Shown here: one piece after another, positions 1-42,800 of the stretch
Layout of the letters: each line of letters starts with the position of its first letter
Position numbering within the stretch: position 1 is the first letter of the stretch
Source of the DNA: Burkholderiales bacterium
Lineage (GTDB): Bacteria > Pseudomonadota > Gammaproteobacteria > Burkholderiales > Burkholderiaceae_C
Length of the DNA stretch: 64,000 nucleotides
Assembly (NCBI GenBank): GCA_039930465.1
Contig: JBDTTU010000006.1
Span: forward strand, 6,317-70,316
Direction of reading: 5' to 3'
Program-made: the position numbers and the translations under genes
The notes under the pieces: model-generated
Seen by the model: only the letters and a program-made list of their open reading frames with translations
The model's database searches: none
Told to the model about the DNA's origin: nothing

Positions 1-921
1 GCCGAGCTTGCGCGGCTCGTCCTTGGTGGTGAACAGTGCAACCCAGATCGCTTCGAACATCGCGAGTGGCTCGGGCTCGAGCAGCGCTTTCTCGATGCGG
101 CCGGCAGCTTCCTTCGGCCTGGCGCCACCCTGCCCGAGCATCAACGCCAGCTCGCGCAGCGACTCGCGCCACGGCATGGTCTGCAGTGCCTGGGCCGGGT
201 GCGAACCGGGGCTGCACGCCGCGGCCACGCTGCCCTCGAGCGCCCCGGCCGCATCGCTCAGTTCGAATTCGACCCGCTTGGACCATGCCGCTTCGAACCA
301 CTTGCGCACCTGGCTGCGGCCACGCTGCGCAACGAGCGCCTGGTGGTCGCGCTGCAGCGCCGGGTCGCGCAGGATCGCCGCGTGAAAGCGCCGGAACACT
401 TCGGCGCGGTGGTCTTCGATGTCTTCGATCAGCTCCATGTCGGGCTGCAGCCCGAGCTCGGCCAGCAGTTCCAGCGGCGCGGCGCGCAGCAGTTGCGAAA
501 ACCAGGCGTGGAAGGTGCGGATCTCGACCGGGCGGCCACCCGCCAGCAGCCGCTCGTGCAGGCCAGCGAGTTCGGGCGCAAGCGCGTCGGCCTTCGAGCG
601 CGGCAGGCCACGCTCGACCAGCGCCCGCACGCGAACCTCGTGCGCGGTGCCGGGCGCGGCGAATTCGCGCAGCCATTCGTTCAGGCGCTGGCGCATTTCA
701 CCGGCGGCTTTGCGGGTGAAGGTGATCGCGAGAATCTCGTGCGGCTGCGCGCCTTCGAGCAGTGCCCGCAGCATGCGCGAGACCAGCATCCAGGTCTTGC
801 CGGCGCCCGCACAGGCTTCGACGACGACACTGCGCTGCGGGTCGCAGGCCAGCGCGTAGAACGCATCGCGCGCGACCGGCTCGCCGCCGGCCTGGTAGGC
901 CGCCGCGCTGGCGCCGCTCAT
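1..921 (-). CDS. addA: UvrD/AddA-like ATP-dependent helicase-nuclease subunit (5' part; runs off the left edge)
   Basis: Not in the ORF track; read manually from ATG at 921: MSGASAAAYQAGGEPVARDAFYALACDPQRSVVVEACAGAGKTWMLVSRMLRALLEGAQPHEILAITFTRKAAGEM. Contains Walker A (AGAGKT) and the UvrD motif Ia (ITFTRKAA). ATGA overlap with the addB stop. Confidence 0.85.
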   Translation of the reverse strand, partial: MSGASAAAYQAGGEPVARDAFYALACDPQRSVVVEACAGAGKTWMLVSRMLRALLEGAQPHEILAITFTRKAAGEMRQRLNEWLREFAAPGTAHEVRVRALVERGLPRSKADALAPELAGLHERLLAGGRPVEIRTFHAWFSQLLRAAPLELLAELGLQPDMELIEDIEDHRAEVFRRFHAAILRDPALQRDHQALVAQRGRSQVRKWFEAAWSKRVEFELSDAAGALEGSVAAACSPGSHPAQALQTMPWRESLRELALMLGQGGARPKEAAGRIEKALLEPEPLAMFEAIWVALFTTKDEPRKLG

Positions 922-16780: not shown

Positions 16781-18682
16781 TCAGGCCGTTGCGGCGGCCG
16801 TGCCAGGCGCGGCCGGCGGGGTCGGCGGCACCAACTTGCTCATCGAAGGGTTCCAGTCCTTCGGCGGGCGTGGCGGCCTGTCGTTCATGATGTCGTCGAT
16901 CTGCTCGGCATCGATGGTCTCGTACTCGAGCAAGGCGTTGGCCATCGCGTGCATCTTGTCCTTGTTGTCTTCGATCAGCTTGCGGGCAACGGCGTATTGT
17001 TCGTCGAGGATCTTGCGGATCTCGCGGTCGACCGACTGCATGGTCTGCTCGCTCATGTTGGTCGTCTTGGTGACCGAGCGGCCGAGGAAGACCTCGCCTT
17101 CGTTGTCGGCGTAGACCATCGTGCCGAGCGCGTCGGTCATGCCGTAGCGCGTGACCATGTCGCGGGCGATGTGGGTGGCGCGCTCGAAGTCGTTGCTGGC
17201 GCCGGTGGTCATCTCGCCGATGAACACTTCTTCGGCGATGCGGCCGCCGAACAGGATCGAGATCGTGCTCAGCATGCGGACCTTGTCGGTGCTGTAGCGG
17301 TCGCCTTCTGGCAACTGCATCGTCACGCCAAGCGCACGGCCGCGCGGAATGACCGTCACCTTGTGCACCGGGTCGGCCTTGGGCACCAGCCGCGCCACCA
17401 GCGCGTGGCCCGACTCGTGGTACGCGGTGTTGCGGCGTTCGTCTTCGGCCATGGCCATCGACTTGCGCTCCGGGCCCATCATGATCTTGTCCTTGGCCTT
17501 CTCGAAGTCGCCCATCTCGACCACCCGGCCATTGCGGCGCGCGGCGAACAAGGCAGCCTCGTTGACCAGATTGGCCAGGTCAGCGCCCGAAAAGCCCGGC
17601 GTGCCGCGCGCCAGGATGTCGGCACGGATGTCTTGTCCGACCGGCACCTTGCGCATGTGCACGTTGAGAATGGCTTCGCGGCCACGCACATCGGGCAGCG
17701 TCACGTAGACCTGGCGGTCGAAGCGGCCCGGGCGCAACAGCGCCGGGTCGAGAATGTCGGGCCGGTTGGTCGCCGCCATCACGATCACGCCGAGGTTGGT
17801 CTCGAAGCCGTCCATCTCCACGAGCATCTGGTTCAGCGTTTGCTCGCGTTCGTCGTTGCCGCCGCCCAGGCCGGCACCGCGGTGGCGGCCGACCGCGTCG
17901 ATTTCGTCGACGAAGATGATGCAAGGCGCGCTCTTCTTGGCCTGCTCGAACATGTCGCGCACGCGCGCCGCGCCGACACCGACGAACATTTCCACAAAAT
18001 CGGAACCCGAGATCGAGAAGAACGGCACCTTCGCTTCGCCGGCAATTGCCTTGGCCAGCAAAGTCTTGCCGGTGCCCGGGGGGCCGACCAGCAACACGCC
18101 GCGAGGGATGCGCCCGCCGAGTTTCTGGAACTTCTGTGGGTCTTTCAGGAAGTCGACCAGTTCCTTGACCTCTTCCTTGGCTTCGTCGCAGCCAGCGACG
18201 TCGGCGAAGGTGGTCGTGTTGTTGGCCTCGTCGAGCATGCGGGCCTTGCTTTTGCCGAAGCTGAAGGCGCCGCCCTTGCCGCCGCCTTGCATCTGACGCA
18301 TGAAATAGATCCACACGCCGATCAGCAGCAGGATCGGGCCCCATGACGCCAGCATGCTGAGCAGGAACGAAGGTTCCTCGCGCGGCTTGACGTCGAACTT
18401 GACGTTGTTGTTGATCAGGTCGCCGACCAGGCCGCGGTCAAGGTAGGTCGCCGTGGTGCGCAGTTCCTTGTCGTCGCTCGTCTTGGCGCGAATCTCGGTG
18501 CCGCTGGCGGTCTCTTGCAGTTGCACGCTCTTGATGCGCTTGCTGCGGACTTCTTCCAGGAAGTCGGAGTACCCGATCATTCCGGTCTGCGATGCACTCC
18601 GGTCGAACTGCTTGAACACGGTGAACAGCACGAGTGCGATCACCAGCCAGACAGCCACTTTCGAGAACCATTGATTGTTCAC
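16781..18682 (-). CDS. ftsH: ATP-dependent zinc metalloprotease FtsH
   Basis: Two N-terminal TMs, [19 protein letters not shown] zinc motif. Start GTG 18682 (MNNQWFSK). Confidence 0.98.
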
Positions 18683-27212: not shown

Positions 27213-28634
27213 TCAAGTTGCGGTGCTCGCCGTCAGGTGCGCAATCGAGTTGGCGTAGTAGGCCACCACCGTCCTCTCGGCCGCGTTGACGCGGAACAGG
27301 CCCTGCTCTTCCAGCACCAGGTGCCGCAGCGTGAGCATGCGCAGGCCAACGGTGAGCGCGTAGTCGCGGTCGGTGCGCGGTACGTAGACATGCGCGCCGA
27401 GCGCCTCGACTCGTTCGATCAGGGCGTGGACTGCGGCTTTCAGTTCCAGTTCTGACCACGCCCGTTGCGGGTCGCCCAGAAACACGCTGGCGACCAGCGG
27501 CACGGGCAGCACCGGCACGTTCAAGCCGATCTGCGTCATCAGCACCTGGCCGACCGCGGCCACTTGGACGCGCCGTTCGGCATCGTCGAGCGCGCGAAAG
27601 TCGATGCCACGTTCCTTCACGAACGCGCGCATCGAATACGGTTGGCCGAAGTTCACGCAGGCATAGCCAAAACGATAGCGCCGCCCCAGCAGCGTGAACA
27701 CGAACTGCCGCGCAAGGTAGCTGCCCGTGATGCGCAGCGTACGCAGCAAGCCACTGCGCTGCGGCCTGGCATCGAGCTTGCGCAGCAGCGTGCGGTCTTC
27801 GATCACACGGTCGTAGTTGATGCCGACCGGAATGAAGACCAGATCACGTTCGCCATCGGGGCTGAAGCCCTTGAGCATGTAGTCGAGCAAGCCAAGCTTG
27901 GGTTCGCGCAAGCGCCCGTCGACCGTGAGCCCGCCTTCGGGGTACATGGCCTGCGGCACACCGCCTTCGGTGGCCATCTGCACGTAGCGCTGCAGCACCA
28001 TCCGGTACAGCGGGTCGCCGGAATTGCGGCGCACGAAGTAGGCCCCCATCGCGCGGATCAAACCCTGCAACGGCCAGATGCGTGCCCACTCGCCGACCGC
28101 GTAGCTCAGCGCGACGCGCTCGGCGGCAAGAAAGGACACGAGGATGTAGTCCATGTTGCTGCGGTGATTCATCACGAACACGACGGTGGACTTCGGGTTG
28201 ATCGCGGCCATTGCCTGCGCGTCGGTGTAGCCCAGGCGCACACGGTAGACGAGCCGCGCGAAGGTCTTCGACAGCCAGTAGCCGACGCGGAAGTAGACGT
28301 AGGCGTTGAAGGCCGGCACGATCTCGCGCGCGTAGACGGCGATCGTTTTCATCACCACCGCCCGCGGCTGGCCGGTGGTGGCCGCGTGCGCCTCGGCGGC
28401 GGCCAGCACGCGCGGGTCGATCATCAGCCGGTCGATCAGCGCGCGGCGGCGCGTCAGCTTGAACTGCGGCAGCTCGATCTTCAGGCGCACGCTGATCTCG
28501 TCCAGCACGTTGCGCACCTTGCGCCTGAAGTACCAGCGTGCGCCCGGCAGCAGCAGCCATTGCAGCAGCGCCAGCAGCACCAGCGCGCACATCAGCACGA
28601 ACACCCACAGCGGCACGGCGACGGTTTGCGTCAA
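27213..28634 (-). CDS. Glycerol-3-phosphate/1-acylglycerol-3-phosphate acyltransferase (PlsB-like)
   Basis: HxxxxD motif NHRSNMD, GAYFVRR, YPEGG; N-terminal membrane anchor; TTG start. Confidence 0.8.
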   Translation of the reverse strand: MTQTVAVPLWVFVLMCALVLLALLQWLLLPGARWYFRRKVRNVLDEISVRLKIELPQFKLTRRRALIDRLMIDPRVLAAAEAHAATTGQPRAVVMKTIAVYAREIVPAFNAYVYFRVGYWLSKTFARLVYRVRLGYTDAQAMAAINPKSTVVFVMNHRSNMDYILVSFLAAERVALSYAVGEWARIWPLQGLIRAMGAYFVRRNSGDPLYRMVLQRYVQMATEGGVPQAMYPEGGLTVDGRLREPKLGLLDYMLKGFSPDGERDLVFIPVGINYDRVIEDRTLLRKLDARPQRSGLLRTLRITGSYLARQFVFTLLGRRYRFGYACVNFGQPYSMRAFVKERGIDFRALDDAERRVQVAAVGQVLMTQIGLNVPVLPVPLVASVFLGDPQRAWSELELKAAVHALIERVEALGAHVYVPRTDRDYALTVGLRMLTLRHLVLEEQGLFRVNAAERTVVAYYANSIAHLTASTAT

Positions 28635-28723
28635 GAGCGATCCTCCCGGAACACGCGGAGTATCGGGCGCAGCCGACGTGCCGGCGATTCGGGCAAACCT
28701 TCGCCTGTCAGCCCCGCTCGAAC

Positions 28724-28946
28724 ACCGCCATGCTTTGGCTTCGGCCCACGTCGCTACACGACATTACCCTGCGCCGAAGCATCGCGATCAAAGACCGCCA
28801 TGCTTTGGCTTCGGCCCACGTCGCTACACGACATCACCCTGCGCTGAAGCATCGCGGTCAAAGACCGCCATGCTTTGGCTTCGGCCCACGTCGCTACACG
28901 ACATCACCCTGCGCCGAAGCATCGCGGTCAAAGACCGCCATGCTTT
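28724..28946. repeat. Tandem array of three 70-bp palindromic units plus a 13-bp partial, overlapping the rlmD 3' end
   Basis: Unit ACCGCCATGCTTTGGCTTCGGCCCACGTCGCTACACGACATCACCCTGCGCCGAAGCATCGCGGTCAAAG starts at 28724, 28794 and 28864, with a partial at 28934. Only three single-base differences among the copies. Confidence 0.97.
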
Positions 28947-30291
28947 CTACATGCGCCGTGTGCGGGAACATGTTCACCGCGCCCGCCGCCGTGCAGCGGT
29001 AACCCGCCTGGTGCACCAGCACACCCGCATCGCGTGCCAGCGTGGCCGGGTTGCAGCTGACGTAGACGATGCGTGTCGGCGCCACATACCCCGGTGCCAA
29101 AGAGGGGTCGGCGTGGATATCGGCCAGCGCCTTGGCGAGCGCAAAAGCGCCTTCGCGCGGCGGGTCGACAAGCCACTTGTCGGCGTGGCCGTGGCCGGCG
29201 AGCGTGGCGGGCGTCAGCTCGAACAGGTTGCTGGCAGCGAAGCTCGCCTTCGCACCCAAGCCGTTGAGCGCCGCGTTGTCGCGCGCACGCTGAACCAGCG
29301 TTTCGCTGCCTTCGATGCCGAGCACTTCGCGCGCCTTCGTCGCGATCGGCAACGTGAAGTTGCCCAGGCCGCAGAACCAGTCGATCACGCGCTCGGCCGG
29401 GCTTGCATCGAGCAGGCGCAAGGCGCGCGTGACCAGCACGCGGTTGATGTGCGGGTTGACCTGCGTGAAGTCGGTCGGCTTGAACGGCATGACGATGCCG
29501 AACTCGGGCAGCGCATAGGCCAGCTCAGGCCCGCCGGCCTCCAGACGTTGCACGGTGTCGGGCCCTTTCGACTGCAGCCACCACTGCACGCCGCGCTCTG
29601 CCCCGAATACCCGCAGCCGTTCCATATCGGGCTCGCTGAGCGGCTCCATGTGGCGCAGCACCATGGCGGTCACATCGTCCCCGATCGCCAATTCGATCTG
29701 CGGCAAGCGGTCACGCTGCGCCATGCCCTCGATCAGCTCGCGCAGCGGCACGAGCAAAGCGCTCACGTGCGGCGGCAGCACCTCGCAGCTGTCCATGTCG
29801 GCCACGAAGCTCGACTTGCGCTCGTGAAAACCGACCAGCACTTTGGCCTTCTTCACCACATAACGCACCGACAAACGGCCCCGGTAGCGGTAACCCCAGG
29901 CCGGCCCTTCGATCGGCCGCAGAACTTGTCCAGGCCTGACCTTGCCAAGATGCCAGAGCGCGTCTTCGAGCGCACGCTGTTTGGTCGCGACCTGCGCGCC
30001 GACGTGGAAGTGCTGCATCTTGCAACCGCCGCAATGACCGAAGTGCCGGCACTGCGGCACCACGCGCTGCGAGCTTTCGCGGCGCAGTGCGCTGATCGTC
30101 GCCTGCTCCCAGTTGTTCTTGCGCCGGCCCACCTGCACCTGCACTTCCTCGCCGGGCAGCGCGTCTTCGATGAACACGACCTTGCCGGCGGCGTTGTGGG
30201 CCACCCCCTGAGCTTCGAGGTCGAGCGACTCGACCTTCAGCCACTCCTTTTCGACCACGGCTTTTTCGAGCACCACTTTTGCTGATTCCAT
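28894..30291 (-). CDS. rlmD: 23S rRNA m5U1939 methyltransferase RlmD (RumA)
   Basis: TRAM domain, C-x5-CGGC Fe-S motif ([10 protein letters not shown]), [42 protein letters not shown]. The last 11 codons come from the repeat. Confidence 0.96.
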
Positions 30292-39896: not shown

Positions 39897-42800
39897 CTAC
39901 TCTTTTGCCGCCGGCATCTGCTCCGGAATCGCCCCGCCTGCCGACGCGGCCTCGTGCGACGTGCCGAAACGCCGCTTCGACCACGCCGCCAGCCCGTCGA
40001 GGTAGCTGTAGAGCACCGGCACGACGATCAGCGTGAGCAGCGTCGAGGTGATCACGCCGCCGATGATGGCGCGGCCCATCGACGCCTGGATCTCGCCGCC
40101 CTCATCGAGCGCGAGCGCCAGCGGCAGCATGCCGAAGACCATCGCCGCGGTCGTCATCATGATCGGGCGCATGCGCACCAGGCCGGCCTGCAGCAGCGCT
40201 TCGGCGGTATTCATGCCGGTCTTGCGCGCCTGGTTGGCGAAGTCGACCAGCAGGATCGCGTTTTTCGTCACCAGCCCCATCAGCATCACCAGGCCGATCA
40301 TCGAGAACAGGTTCAACGTGGAGCGTGTGATCAGCAGCGCGAGCATCACGCCGATCAGCGCCAGTGGCAGCGAAGCCATGATCGCAAAAGGCTGCAGGAA
40401 GCTGCCGAACTGCGACGCGAGCACGATGTAGATGAACACCACCGCGGCCACCAGCGCCAGCAGAATGCCCTGGAACGCCTCGGCCTGCTCGCGCGACTGG
40501 CCGCCCTGGTCGAAGCGGTAGCCCGGCGGCAGCTGCGTCGCCTCGACCACCTTCTTCACCTCGACGCCCACGTCGCCACTCGGCCGGCCGGTCACGCCGG
40601 CGTAGACGGCCTGGCGGCGCTGCAGGTCCTGGCGCTTGATGACCTCGGGGTTGACCACGCTCACCACGTCGGCCACGCGCGACAGCGCGATCGGCGTGCC
40701 GTCTTTGGCGTAGGCCACCGGCAGGCTGTCGAGCTGGGCCACGTTCTCGCGCAGCAGTTGGGGCAGGCGCAGTTCCACTTCCACCTGCTCGCCGTCGGGC
40801 GCGGTCCAGTAGGTCGCCACGTCGCCGTTGACGAAGCTGCGCAGGCTGGTGGCGAGCTGGGTCGGCGTGATGCCGAGCTCGCGCACCGCATCGGGCCGCA
40901 GGCGCACGGCGTAGGCCGGCAGGCCGGGCTTCACCGAAGTTTCCAGGTCGGTGATGCCCTTGATCTTGCCGATCTTCTCGGCCAGGCGCAGCACTTCGGC
41001 GTCGAGCACCTTCGGGTCGGGGCCGAGCAGCGAGACGAAGATCGGCCGGTTGCCAATCGACACGTCGGCACCGGGGATCGGTGCGATGGCCTTGCGGATC
41101 GCTTCTTCCACTTCTTTCTGCGAGCGCTTGCGTTCGCTCGGCTTGGTCAGCTGCAAGGTGAGCTTGCCGACGTTGCGGCTGCCGTCCACGTCGCCCACCT
41201 GCGTTGACATCAGGCGCACCTCGGGCATCACGCGCACCAGGTCTTCGACCTGCTTCATCTTCTCGTTGCCACGCGTCAGGCTCGTGCCCACCGGCATGCG
41301 CACGTTGAGCGAGATGTAGCTGTTGTCGGCATCGGGAATGAATTCGCTGCCGACCAGCGGTGCGAGCGCGAGCGCGCCCACAAAACTGGCCAGGCCTGCG
41401 CACAGCACGATCGCGCGCGGCGTGATCGTCGCGAAGCGCATGCGCCGCGGCTGACTCTTGTCGCGCTGGCCTTGTGAATCGAACGGGCGCCCGAAGGCCG
41501 GGATCGGCGGCACCCAGATGCGGTGGCGACTGCCGGCAAAGACCCAGTGGATCAGGCGTTCGTATACGGCATGCATGACGTCGAGCAGGCGGTCGGTGGC
41601 GCGCATCAGGTGGCCCAGGCCCCAGACGCGCCCGAGCCGGTTGACCGGCGGGTCTTTCCAGATGCTCGACAGCATCGGGTCGAGCGTGAAGCTGACGAAC
41701 AGGCTCACCAGCACCGCCACCGCGACCGTGATGCCGAAGGGAAAGAAGAACTTGCCGATGATCCCTTTCATGAACGCGACCGGCACGAACACGGCGCAGA
41801 TCGCGAACGTGGTCGCCATGACCGCAAGACCAATCTCGTTGGTGCCTTCGCTGGCTGCGCGGTGATGATCCTTTCCCATGTGGATGTGGCGCACGATGTT
41901 CTCGCGCACCACGATCGCGTCGTCGATCAAGAGGCCGATGCACAGGCTCAGCGCCATCATCGTCATGAAATTCAGCGTGAAGCCGAAGGCATACACCGCG
42001 ATGAAAGCCGAGATCACCGAGATCGGCAGCGTGAGGCCGGTGATGATCGTGCTGCGCCAGCTGTGCAGGAACAGGAACACGATCGCGATCGTGAGCAACG
42101 CGCCTTCGATCAGCGTGCGCTTGACGCCACTGAGCGAATCACGCACCCAGTCGCTGTCGGCGTAGACCAGCCGCAGTTCGACACCCGGCGGCAGGCTCTT
42201 GCGCAACTCTTCGGTGGCGAGCTTGATGCCTTCGCCGGTCTCGACGATGTTGGCGTCCTGCTGCTTGAACACTTCGAACGATACCGAAGGCACGCCGTCG
42301 ACCCGCGCGATCGACACCGGCTCCTGCTCACGCTCGACCAGCTCGCCCAGGTCGCCCAGCCGCACGATCAGGTTGCCACGGTTGGCCACCACCACGTCGG
42401 CGAACGCCTTCGGATCGCGCACCCGGCCTTCGACACGCACCAGCGCGTCTTCCTTGCCGCTGCTGAGCAAGCCGACCGGCACGTCGGCGTTGGCACGCTG
42501 CAAAGCGGCCGACACGTCGGCCGGCGTGAGCTGATACGCACGCAGGCGCTGCGGGTCGAGGTTGATGCGCAGTTGGCGCACTGTGAGGCCGCTCACGTCG
42601 ACCTTGGCGACTCCGCCGACGCGCTCGAGCCGCTTGCGCACGACCTGGTCGGCCAGCAACGACAGCTCACGCGCGCTGCGCTCGGGCGCCACCAGTGCGA
42701 GGTAAACGGTGGGCTGGGCGTTGTCGCCGTCGAAGCGCGAGATGTAGGGAGCCTTGGCGTCACGCGGGAAGCTCGGCTGCAGCGCCGACACCTTGTCGCG

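Follow-up and report, generated by a model that had tools for sequence, protein, structure and literature searches.

Among the described bacterial sequences that come close to the element discussed here are the short palindromic repeats of the REP, BIME and REPIN type. The element is a 70-nucleotide tandem repeat that overlaps the last codons of rlmD, the gene for the 23S rRNA U1939 methyltransferase, in a Burkholderiales bacterium (assembly GCA_039930465.1, contig JBDTTU010000006.1, positions 6,317 to 70,316 of the forward strand); the window is this whole stretch of 64,000 nucleotides, and unless stated otherwise positions refer to it. Like REP, BIME and REPIN sequences, the repeat and its relatives are short imperfect palindromes with conserved mismatches that often lie by terminators, are sometimes in tandem or mosaic arrangement and occur inside larger composites. 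Unlike them, the family, whose conserved core is an irregular hairpin that we call H2, has 0–9 copies per genome rather than hundreds and no conserved GTAG head; its copies are found inside open reading frames (ORFs) and a tRNA, carry a first hairpin derived from the target and come with a duplicated gene end, and a Y1 transposase is missing from the window's genome and from 32 of the 35 genomes of the genus.

Other systems share some of these features. Rickettsia palindromic elements (RPEs) occur within ORFs and in the tmRNA gene (PMC1458961). The likeness is that of small palindromic repeats tolerated in frame in coding genes and within RNA genes, although RPEs are unrelated in sequence and taxon, longer and far more numerous. 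To our knowledge, neither a gene-end duplication nor a target-derived hairpin has been described for RPEs. The MIRU minisatellites of mycobacteria have units of 50–100 nucleotides that are arrayed in tandem at a few dozen loci, extend into the ends of neighbouring ORFs and differ in copy number between lineages; we know of no conserved covarying hairpin core, insertions within ORFs or tRNAs, or stranded gene ends among them. The WHO elements of yeasts leave old FBA1 ends behind as downstream relics, and repeated events build clusters of them. At each integration, the WHO elements of Torulaspora and Lachancea replace the 3′ end of FBA1 (PMC7282813). The replaced 3′ end of the target gene and the stranded old end are also seen at rlmD and at argF, but WHO elements are kilobases long and encode an endonuclease, whereas the H2 element is bacterial, 47–70 nucleotides long and without an ORF. 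Likewise, rumA/rlmD is a known target of integrative and conjugative elements (ICEs) in streptococci, and the att duplications there share with the present locus the target gene, a duplicated end and differences at synonymous sites; here, by contrast, both recombinase and cargo are missing, the insert has 70 nucleotides, and the family is not rlmD-specific. Finally, template switching is known from quasipalindrome correction and from DUP-TRP/INV-DUP rearrangements, which resemble the present layout in the direct-inverted-direct triplication of a short segment and in microhomology at the junctions; those products are sporadic mutations, whereas here the same conserved core appears each time.

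In the analysis that follows, the 70-nucleotide unit is best explained, with a probability of roughly 0.75, as a locus-adapted copy of dispersed, low-copy structured repeats found in Rubrivivax/Roseateles/Ideonella-type Burkholderiales. The family works like the REP/BIME or RPE-type palindromic repeats, and it does not behave as a REP/RAYT system, a miniature inverted-repeat transposable element (MITE), an att scar or a type III toxin-antitoxin (TA) locus.

The repeat array at the end of rlmD

Tandem Repeats Finder reports positions 28724–28946 as a repeat of period 70 with 3.2 copies, 97% matches and a score of 425. The 13-mer AAAGCATGGCGGT has four minus-strand copies, at 28724, 28794, 28864 and 28934, with exact 70-nucleotide spacing and a chance expectation of 0, which confirms the array that an earlier note on this DNA had described near the end of rlmD. 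A 57-nucleotide core occurs three times in the array with 0, 1 and 2 mismatches (chance expectation again 0); in total, the array comprises three 70-nucleotide units and a fourth 13-mer at the rlmD end. The features of the locus, with the evidence for each in parentheses, are the following.

28894..30291, minus strand: rlmD as now read, 465 amino acids (ORF list; Pfam TRAM and tRNA_U5-meth_tr)
28877..28946, minus strand: repeat unit 1, 70 nucleotides, giving codons S450 to V465 and the working stop TAG at 28894–28896 (BLAST, covariance-model matches, sequence)
28917..28945, minus strand: hairpin 1 of unit 1 (folds; compensatory pairs in other lineages)
28877..28915, minus strand: H2 of unit 1, which is the conserved core of the family; the hairpin is irregular and its internal loop is 3x3, GAA/GRA (covariance model R2, 63.9 bits; covariation counts)
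28807..28876, minus strand: repeat unit 2, non-coding, 1 difference from unit 1 (BLAST and core search; R2)
28737..28806, minus strand: repeat unit 3, non-coding, 2 differences from unit 1 (BLAST and core search; R2)
28708..28736, minus strand: T′, the stranded native rlmD end AAAGCATGGCGGTGTTCGAGCGGGGCTGA (SMAVFERG*) (sequence; ends in relatives)
27213..28634, minus strand: downstream, co-directional GPAT/PlsB-like acyltransferase gene (ORF list; Pfam Acyltransferase and GPAT_C)

The array is thus placed between the rlmD stop and the acyltransferase gene, with the last 16 rlmD codons inside unit 1. After unit 3 the sequence reads AGC ATG GCG GTG TTC GAG CGG GGC TGA (SMAVFERG*, stop at 28708–28710), an intact-looking but untranslated gene end 210 nucleotides downstream of the working one; the first 13 nucleotides of T′ are also the start of every unit, and excising 210 nucleotides (3 x 70) leaves the rlmD frame unbroken. 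The earlier note had read both the stranded end and the in-frame deletion correctly, as it had the wobble-position variation between the copy upstream (GTC TTT GAC CGC) and that downstream (GTG TTC GAG CGG), whose differences fall mostly on third codon positions.

On the rlmD sense strand, the 70-nucleotide unit folds into two hairpins with a predicted energy of −38.3 kcal/mol (z = −5.0), as against −27.4 kcal/mol for the antisense strand. Hairpin 1 is AAGCATGGCGGTC-TTT-GACCGCGATGCTT: the rlmD codons (E)SMAV form its left arm and the Phe codon its loop, and the right arm, GACCGCGATGCTT, repeats the left one as its reverse complement and is translated as D-R-D-A; hence the new C-terminus of RlmD is largely an inverted copy of the old one. 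The H2 hairpin (~40 nucleotides) follows hairpin 1, contains the working stop codon, and has a conserved U.G pair, a bulge and the 3x3 internal loop. The layout at rlmD can be written as GAA, a gene-end copy (AGC ATN GCG GTC), TTY, the reverse complement of that copy, H2 and the native gene end. Across lineages the M/I/L codon of hairpin 1 and its partner covary (ATC:GAT, ATT:GGT, ATT:AAT, CTT:GAG). The native AVFDR codons, GCGGTC-TTC-GACCGC, form a pre-existing 6-bp palindrome.

The RlmD enzyme is probably unharmed by the element. Judged from its sequence, it is most likely functional, because the Pfam methyltransferase match extends to residue 452 of 465 and the element re-encodes S450–R456 (SMAVFDR; native SMAVFER) before adding nine extra residues. 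The exact RlmD protein sequence had no record in a protein look-up. A simple scan for a sense-strand terminator between rlmD and the acyltransferase gene found none, the sole match being antisense (+). In practical terms, the array at rlmD is a benign, variable minisatellite.

A dispersed family of conserved hairpins

R2 is a covariance model that covers H2 only and derives from 13 copies. In this set 94% of cells are paired, changes on both sides are seen in seven pairs, and none of 500 shuffles attains the observed score. R2 gives the three rlmD units 60–65 bits and finds homologues at many unrelated loci, with 0–9 copies per genome in the genus (lower bounds; the scans scored a limited number of candidates in each genome, the first-look filter may undercount, and many of the genomes are fragmentary metagenome-assembled genomes, or MAGs). 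In a 301-genome sample of the bacterial family it has matches in 45 genomes, which belong to 37 of the 201 genera sampled. Public genomes scanned with an exact pattern gave 69 loci, all in this bacterial group, with hosts among Rubrivivax, Ideonella, Roseateles/Pelomonas, Methylibium, and Piscinibacter or Rhizobacter-type Burkholderiales. Cultivable hosts with H2 copies include Pelomonas sp. Root1237, Methylibium sp. Root1272, Pelomonas cellulosilytica P8 and Rubrivivax sp. A210. Over 81 covariance-model matches, 98.5% of cells are paired, with bulk pair switches GC/AU, UA/CG and AU/GC. The U.G pair is kept in 65 of the 69 distinct copies, even though the search pattern permitted C-G, and this retention identifies the rlmD sense strand as the folded one.

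In general form, a member of the family consists of a variable hairpin 1 with an AAAG...CTTC foot, the conserved ~40-nucleotide H2 and AAA; the canonical element is (T)GAAAGCGC-nnn-GCGCTTC followed by GGYGMAGGCTCAYRTCGCGMAGCGAYGTGAYGCCGRAGCC and AAA. A subfamily, H2b, has an extra mini-hairpin at the H2 bulge and is present at other loci in many members of the genus (G044, G022, G008, G021, G002, G046, G045, G049, G004, G005 and G006, by matches to positions 227–313 of the query). Since R2 detects H2b only weakly, the copy numbers of the family are underestimated. The window's own genome, G000, has two family loci by R2, at rlmD and at argF. Two very weak R2 matches elsewhere in the window, at 18199–18265 (+) and 40839–40878 (+), reach 12–13 bits (E 0.6–0.8) and are probably chance GC-rich hairpins.

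The array had no Rfam match at E up to 1, and nine other loci had no relevant one; nothing relevant on a described repeat in Rubrivivax or betaproteobacteria appeared in the literature searched. The H2 repeat family is apparently undescribed. Identification of H2 as a group II intron domain V, an attC site or a self-cleaving ribozyme was considered and rejected, as it shows no defining motifs and no Rfam match. Another candidate was mimicry by hairpin 2 of the 23S rRNA U1939 hairpin (U-GUCG...CGAC), and it fails twice: the stem is unconserved (GGCGC/GCGCC in G013), and the core is found at many genes unrelated to rlmD.

Filled and empty alleles of rlmD

A comparison of rlmD 3′ ends across the order gives the normal RlmD end as ...HVES[MI]A[VL]F[ED]R plus 0–3 residues. 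By this comparison the long tail is the derived form, and SMAVFERG* represents the native end, now stranded, as the earlier note had thought probable; T′ is identical in the metagenome contigs L233 and L234 and one nucleotide off the coding end of the sister species G020. The rlmD alleles vary across lineages and genera, with 0, 1, 2 or 3 units.

G000 (window's genome): 3 units
G002: 3 units; left arm degenerate in the non-coding units
G013: 1 unit; direct repeat identical at 23/23 positions
G018: 1 unit
G020, G004, G006 (closest relatives): clean empty sites
G304 (other genus): 3-unit array
G279 (other genus): 1 unit, then the stranded end TCG ATC GCA GTC TTC GAT CGC TGA (SIAVFDR*)
G103 (other genus): element begins right at the native stop
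Metagenome contigs: 1 unit in L232, L233 and L234; 2 units in L235

In G279 all differences between the stranded and working copies are synonymous, one of them being an AGC/TCG switch of serine codons. H2-derived tails are found in 18 of the 120 metagenomic RlmD proteins that are closest in their C-terminal region. The filled alleles (11 genomes or contigs) contain 1–3 units and nothing else, empty alleles have no H2 downstream, and the two kinds differ only by 70 x n nucleotides, with flanking synteny intact (gcvT, rlmD, acyltransferase or yccA); in other lineages rlmD is followed by a terminator and a convergent yccA.

Filled and empty alleles are interleaved at every depth of the rlmD gene trees. 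Thus G000 (three units) pairs with G020 (none), L235 (two) with G014 (none) and L232 (one) with G007 (none), while G002 (three) groups with the empty G022 and G008, and G279 (one) with G103. Every filled allele that was read out has GAA AGC, which hairpin 1 requires, and the clade's empty G020, G004 and G006 have GAG AGC. The empty alleles of G007 and G019 carry GAA, and these lineages may be former carriers. Among G000, L232, L233 and L234 the unit is 93–99% identical, and the rlmD coding sequence 85–88%; in distant lineages the core differs by ~20–25% (our own count), with compensatory changes. Taken together, the interleaved alleles, the GAA/GAG pattern and the identity of the unit relative to that of the coding sequence indicate repeated gain and loss at rlmD. 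The last 17 codons of carriers show raised third-position conservation, which is not diagnostic, since the region is conserved in empty alleles too.

A recurrent architecture at gene ends

The arrangement of gene end, inverted copy, H2 and stranded native end is not confined to rlmD but recurs at argF, at proB, at an AMP-ligase gene and at a gene ending in ...INYAKEKH*. At such gene ends the last codons of the gene pair with an inverted copy of themselves to make hairpin 1, and the native end returns after H2. In proB the new end is DNMVLA* and the stranded one DNMARA*. At the ...INYAKEKH* gene the arrangement is found in six genomes belonging to several genera, and the arms covary there (AAACAC:GTGTTT, AAGCAC:GTGCTT and AATCAC:GTGATT). 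Over 73 non-redundant loci, the left arm of hairpin 1 matches the 3′ flank at 13 or more of 16 positions in nine, where 0.4 would be expected from cross-pairing; three of these nine (L137, L131 and L106) are internal junctions of tandem arrays.

The argF locus (ornithine carbamoyltransferase; G000:C44, L160, ~49–212, minus strand, outside the window) is the second case in the same genome. The gene ends ...LLLGRIG*, with the TGA in the loop of a hairpin whose arms are the gene end and an inverted copy of it; this is followed by an H2 variant that has an additional mini-hairpin, and then by a stranded duplicate of the last ~60 nucleotides. The working and stranded copies have eight differences, all synonymous. 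The arrangement is common to the sister species G020, the stranded copy has the clade's usual codons, and in other members of the genus the site is empty. The 55 nucleotides after the stranded argF end (L160 1–55, the start of C44) recur at the ends of contigs C38, C118, C178, C91 and C86, and are probably the terminus of a multi-copy insertion sequence (IS) that breaks the assembly.

We also considered whether every copy rebuilds hairpin 1 from its target. This was rejected: canonical copies share AAGCGC-nnn-GCGCTT at unrelated loci and have no similarity to their flanks.

Sites occupied by other copies

A-runs and GAAAG recur as the target, and copies at gene ends have a sense bias: among 66 non-redundant loci, the stop lies inside the element for nine sense genes and for no antisense gene. 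At A-runs by terminators, comparison of filled and empty sites places an insert of 58 nucleotides within ...ATG AAAAAGGCCGC; G022 and G002 have the canonical copy, G024 has a decayed one, and at least ten members of the genus have an empty site. The G024 copy (G024:C275, L204), orthologous and of canonical type, has lost the apex of H2 through an internal deletion and exemplifies an element that is decaying in place. Tandem arrays are also found at other loci, with periods of 56–112 nucleotides.

Copies internal to ORFs read H2 in one common frame. In hom (homoserine dehydrogenase), in-frame copies of 57 nucleotides lie right after the ATG (L061 in G008, L084 in G002, and L108), and one genome has two of them in tandem, so that 19 or 38 residues are added (..SAQxHVAQxRDxE..). 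An RND efflux pump gene (L168, G270:C1:310830-310904) has a 75-nucleotide in-frame copy, VVVEN-IHRHLAMNVSAQAHIAEGDVSRSQ-NMARLIQ; there T′ resembles the segment labelled T* at only 9/16 positions, and the copy may lack a true downstream duplicate. In the tRNA arrays of two MAGs (L133 625–671 and L093 6698–6743, minus strand), copies interrupt a tRNA anticodon loop. ARAGORN misses the interrupted gene; the joined flanks make a 76-nucleotide tRNA, which is Trp(CCA) if 55 nucleotides are removed at CTCC^AAA. Some H2 copies lie in the loops of REP-like hairpins. In the MAG UWPOB_RUBRI1, H2 is part of a 415–457-nucleotide non-coding composite repeat without an ORF, in at least eight copies of 88–91% identity (L124, L143, L099, L116, L132, L115, L149 and L094), with long, covarying inverted arms; further copies are found in SZAS TMP-57.

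Searches for a moving enzyme or cargo

The Y1_Tnp/RAYT family (PF01797) has no match in G000, which is 100% complete, nor in the H2 carriers G002, G013, G018 and G022, and occurs in 3 of the 35 genus genomes. A reverse transcriptase (RVT_1) is missing from G000, G013 and G018 and present in 13 of the 35, and past or transient reverse transcriptase activity is possible. No recombinase or cargo was found at rlmD in the filled alleles, whose neighbours are housekeeping genes; the absence of cargo follows from filled and empty alleles differing only by 70 x n. The plasmid and phage collections contain no match to the array. The fixed-length target-site duplication of a MITE is not seen, the duplicated lengths being ~3 nucleotides (AAA), 13–23 (rlmD) and ~60 (argF), and no parent IS was seen, though no systematic IS search was made; the 415–457-nucleotide composite repeat has no ORF. 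There is no ToxN-type gene next to the array, as a ToxI-like type III TA system would have, the downstream gene being the acyltransferase. The 70-nucleotide unit has no ORF and hence no homing endonuclease of its own, while a nuclease acting in trans was not systematically searched for.

Discussion

The observations at rlmD are best accounted for by a miniature non-autonomous element that was amplified locally by slippage. The unit belongs to a family, its sites are polymorphic for insertion, it duplicates the gene end and adds an inverted copy, the same layout recurs elsewhere, and its copy number varies. The earlier note had proposed just such an element, amplified in tandem; the dispersed H2 family and the one, two or three units of filled rlmD alleles agree with it.

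How such an element would come and go is a matter for more cautious statement. With moderate confidence, the step from one unit to three can be ascribed to slipped-strand events or unequal recombination between the direct repeats of 13–23 nucleotides. Gain at rlmD would occur when an rlmD-adapted cassette moves between related lineages by recombination across both gene-end copies, and loss by precise deletion through recombination between those two copies. For the first insertion, with no dedicated enzyme in the genome, we propose, with low confidence, copy-choice replication at GAAAG/GAAAA: the nascent strand would jump into a donor H2 element, guided by microhomologies of GCTT(C) before H2 and AAAG after it. 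For the gene-end class, a snap-back would first copy the target inverted, after which the target would be copied again, the outcome being a direct-inverted-direct triplication. An alternative route of insertion is homing-like recombination, as in the yeast WHO elements, which would need a nuclease; the synonymous-only differences and the spread of adapted cassettes fit this route. Put in its strongest form, and only tentatively, the proposal is that a protein-less core of ~45 nucleotides is copied into GAAAG/GAAAA sites by host replication (copy choice and snap-back) or by homing-like recombination, with hairpin 1 built from the target and a replacement gene end delivered.

Several points weigh against reading the unit as a copy of a mobile repeat. 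Copy numbers of 0–9 are far below those of typical selfish repeats, and orthologous copies with compensatory changes persist across genera, at rlmD and at the KEKH* gene, which a selected RNA fits equally well. Structural constraint, not lateral spread, could give the unit its high identity between lineages, and could account for part of its conservation in any case. No long imported tract is visible in G000, where rlmD is clade-like until ~25 nucleotides before the unit. Within G000, BLAST of the 70-nucleotide unit returned the array only, and since only the diverged argF H2 ties this genome to the family, recent mobility in it is no more than a possibility. The earlier note's suggestion of looking for the core elsewhere drew a blank with BLAST in the own genome and with the plasmid and phage collections, but succeeded with the covariance model, at argF and in other genera. 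The template-switch model, for its part, is something that we infer.

In a rival account, hairpin 1 and H2 form a cis-acting RNA, a functional 3′-end or intergenic element that is selected by the host and occasionally duplicates. It might stabilise transcripts, signal their processing or termination, or bind a protein, and the array at rlmD would adjust read-through, or transcript stability, in the interval from rlmD to the acyltransferase gene. The covariation and the strand-specific U.G pair are what such an RNA would show, as are the covariation of hairpin 1 with its coding arm at orthologous sites across genera, the exclusively sense overlaps with gene ends (9 versus 0), the low copy number, and a unit that is better conserved than the flanking coding sequence. 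It is harder to see why a selected RNA would interrupt a tRNA anticodon loop, lie in frame within hom and an RND pump gene, decay in place in G024 or be absent from the closest relatives; nor do the neighbouring genes share a function, and no Rfam family matches. We consider this account possible, but distinctly less probable than a dispersed repeat.

Two further explanations had been raised by the earlier note, and neither explains where the unit comes from. One is a purely local origin, in which the old rlmD end and a downstream hairpin were duplicated by replication slippage without any mobile element. The BLAST-unique unit, the 6-bp palindrome already in the native AVFDR codons, and three units only three bases apart, consistent with recent slippage, would all suit it, but dozens of copies homologous to H2 are scattered over unrelated loci of many genera, empty alleles have no H2 downstream of rlmD, and the architecture is repeated at argF, proB and other genes. 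Local slippage is refuted by the family-wide covariance-model matches as the origin of the unit, which leaves a purely local history very improbable, and it survives for the step from one to three copies only. The other is an att-type scar, left by an ICE, prophage or genomic island that was once in rlmD with a replacement 3′ end. Gene-end direct repeats do flank the insert (13–23 nucleotides at rlmD, ~60 at argF), and the upstream copy does differ at wobble positions. Against this, a filled allele exceeds an empty one by whole 70-nucleotide units only and within intact synteny, no plasmid or phage sequence matches, and the same core is found at A-runs, in ORFs and in a tRNA loop with no island there; we therefore regard the scar, which the earlier note had favoured as one of its two readings, as the least credible explanation of all.

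The usual view of small palindromic repeats is that they are extragenic clutter which a known transposase moves, and the H2 family behaves differently: it is low-copy, has a covarying, strand-specific fold, lies in sense orientation at or inside genes and repeatedly produces the stranded-end layout. If it is mobile without an enzyme of its own, it would provide a tractable bacterial model for template-switch insertion or for enzyme-less homing, and would account for unusual C-terminal tails, gene ends present twice and short in-frame inserts, all of which annotation pipelines misinterpret. If the tentative protein-less reading is also true, then the core can settle in essential genes, tRNAs and operon junctions without killing its host, and locus-adapted cassettes, such as the one at rlmD, would spread between species as self-targeting units.

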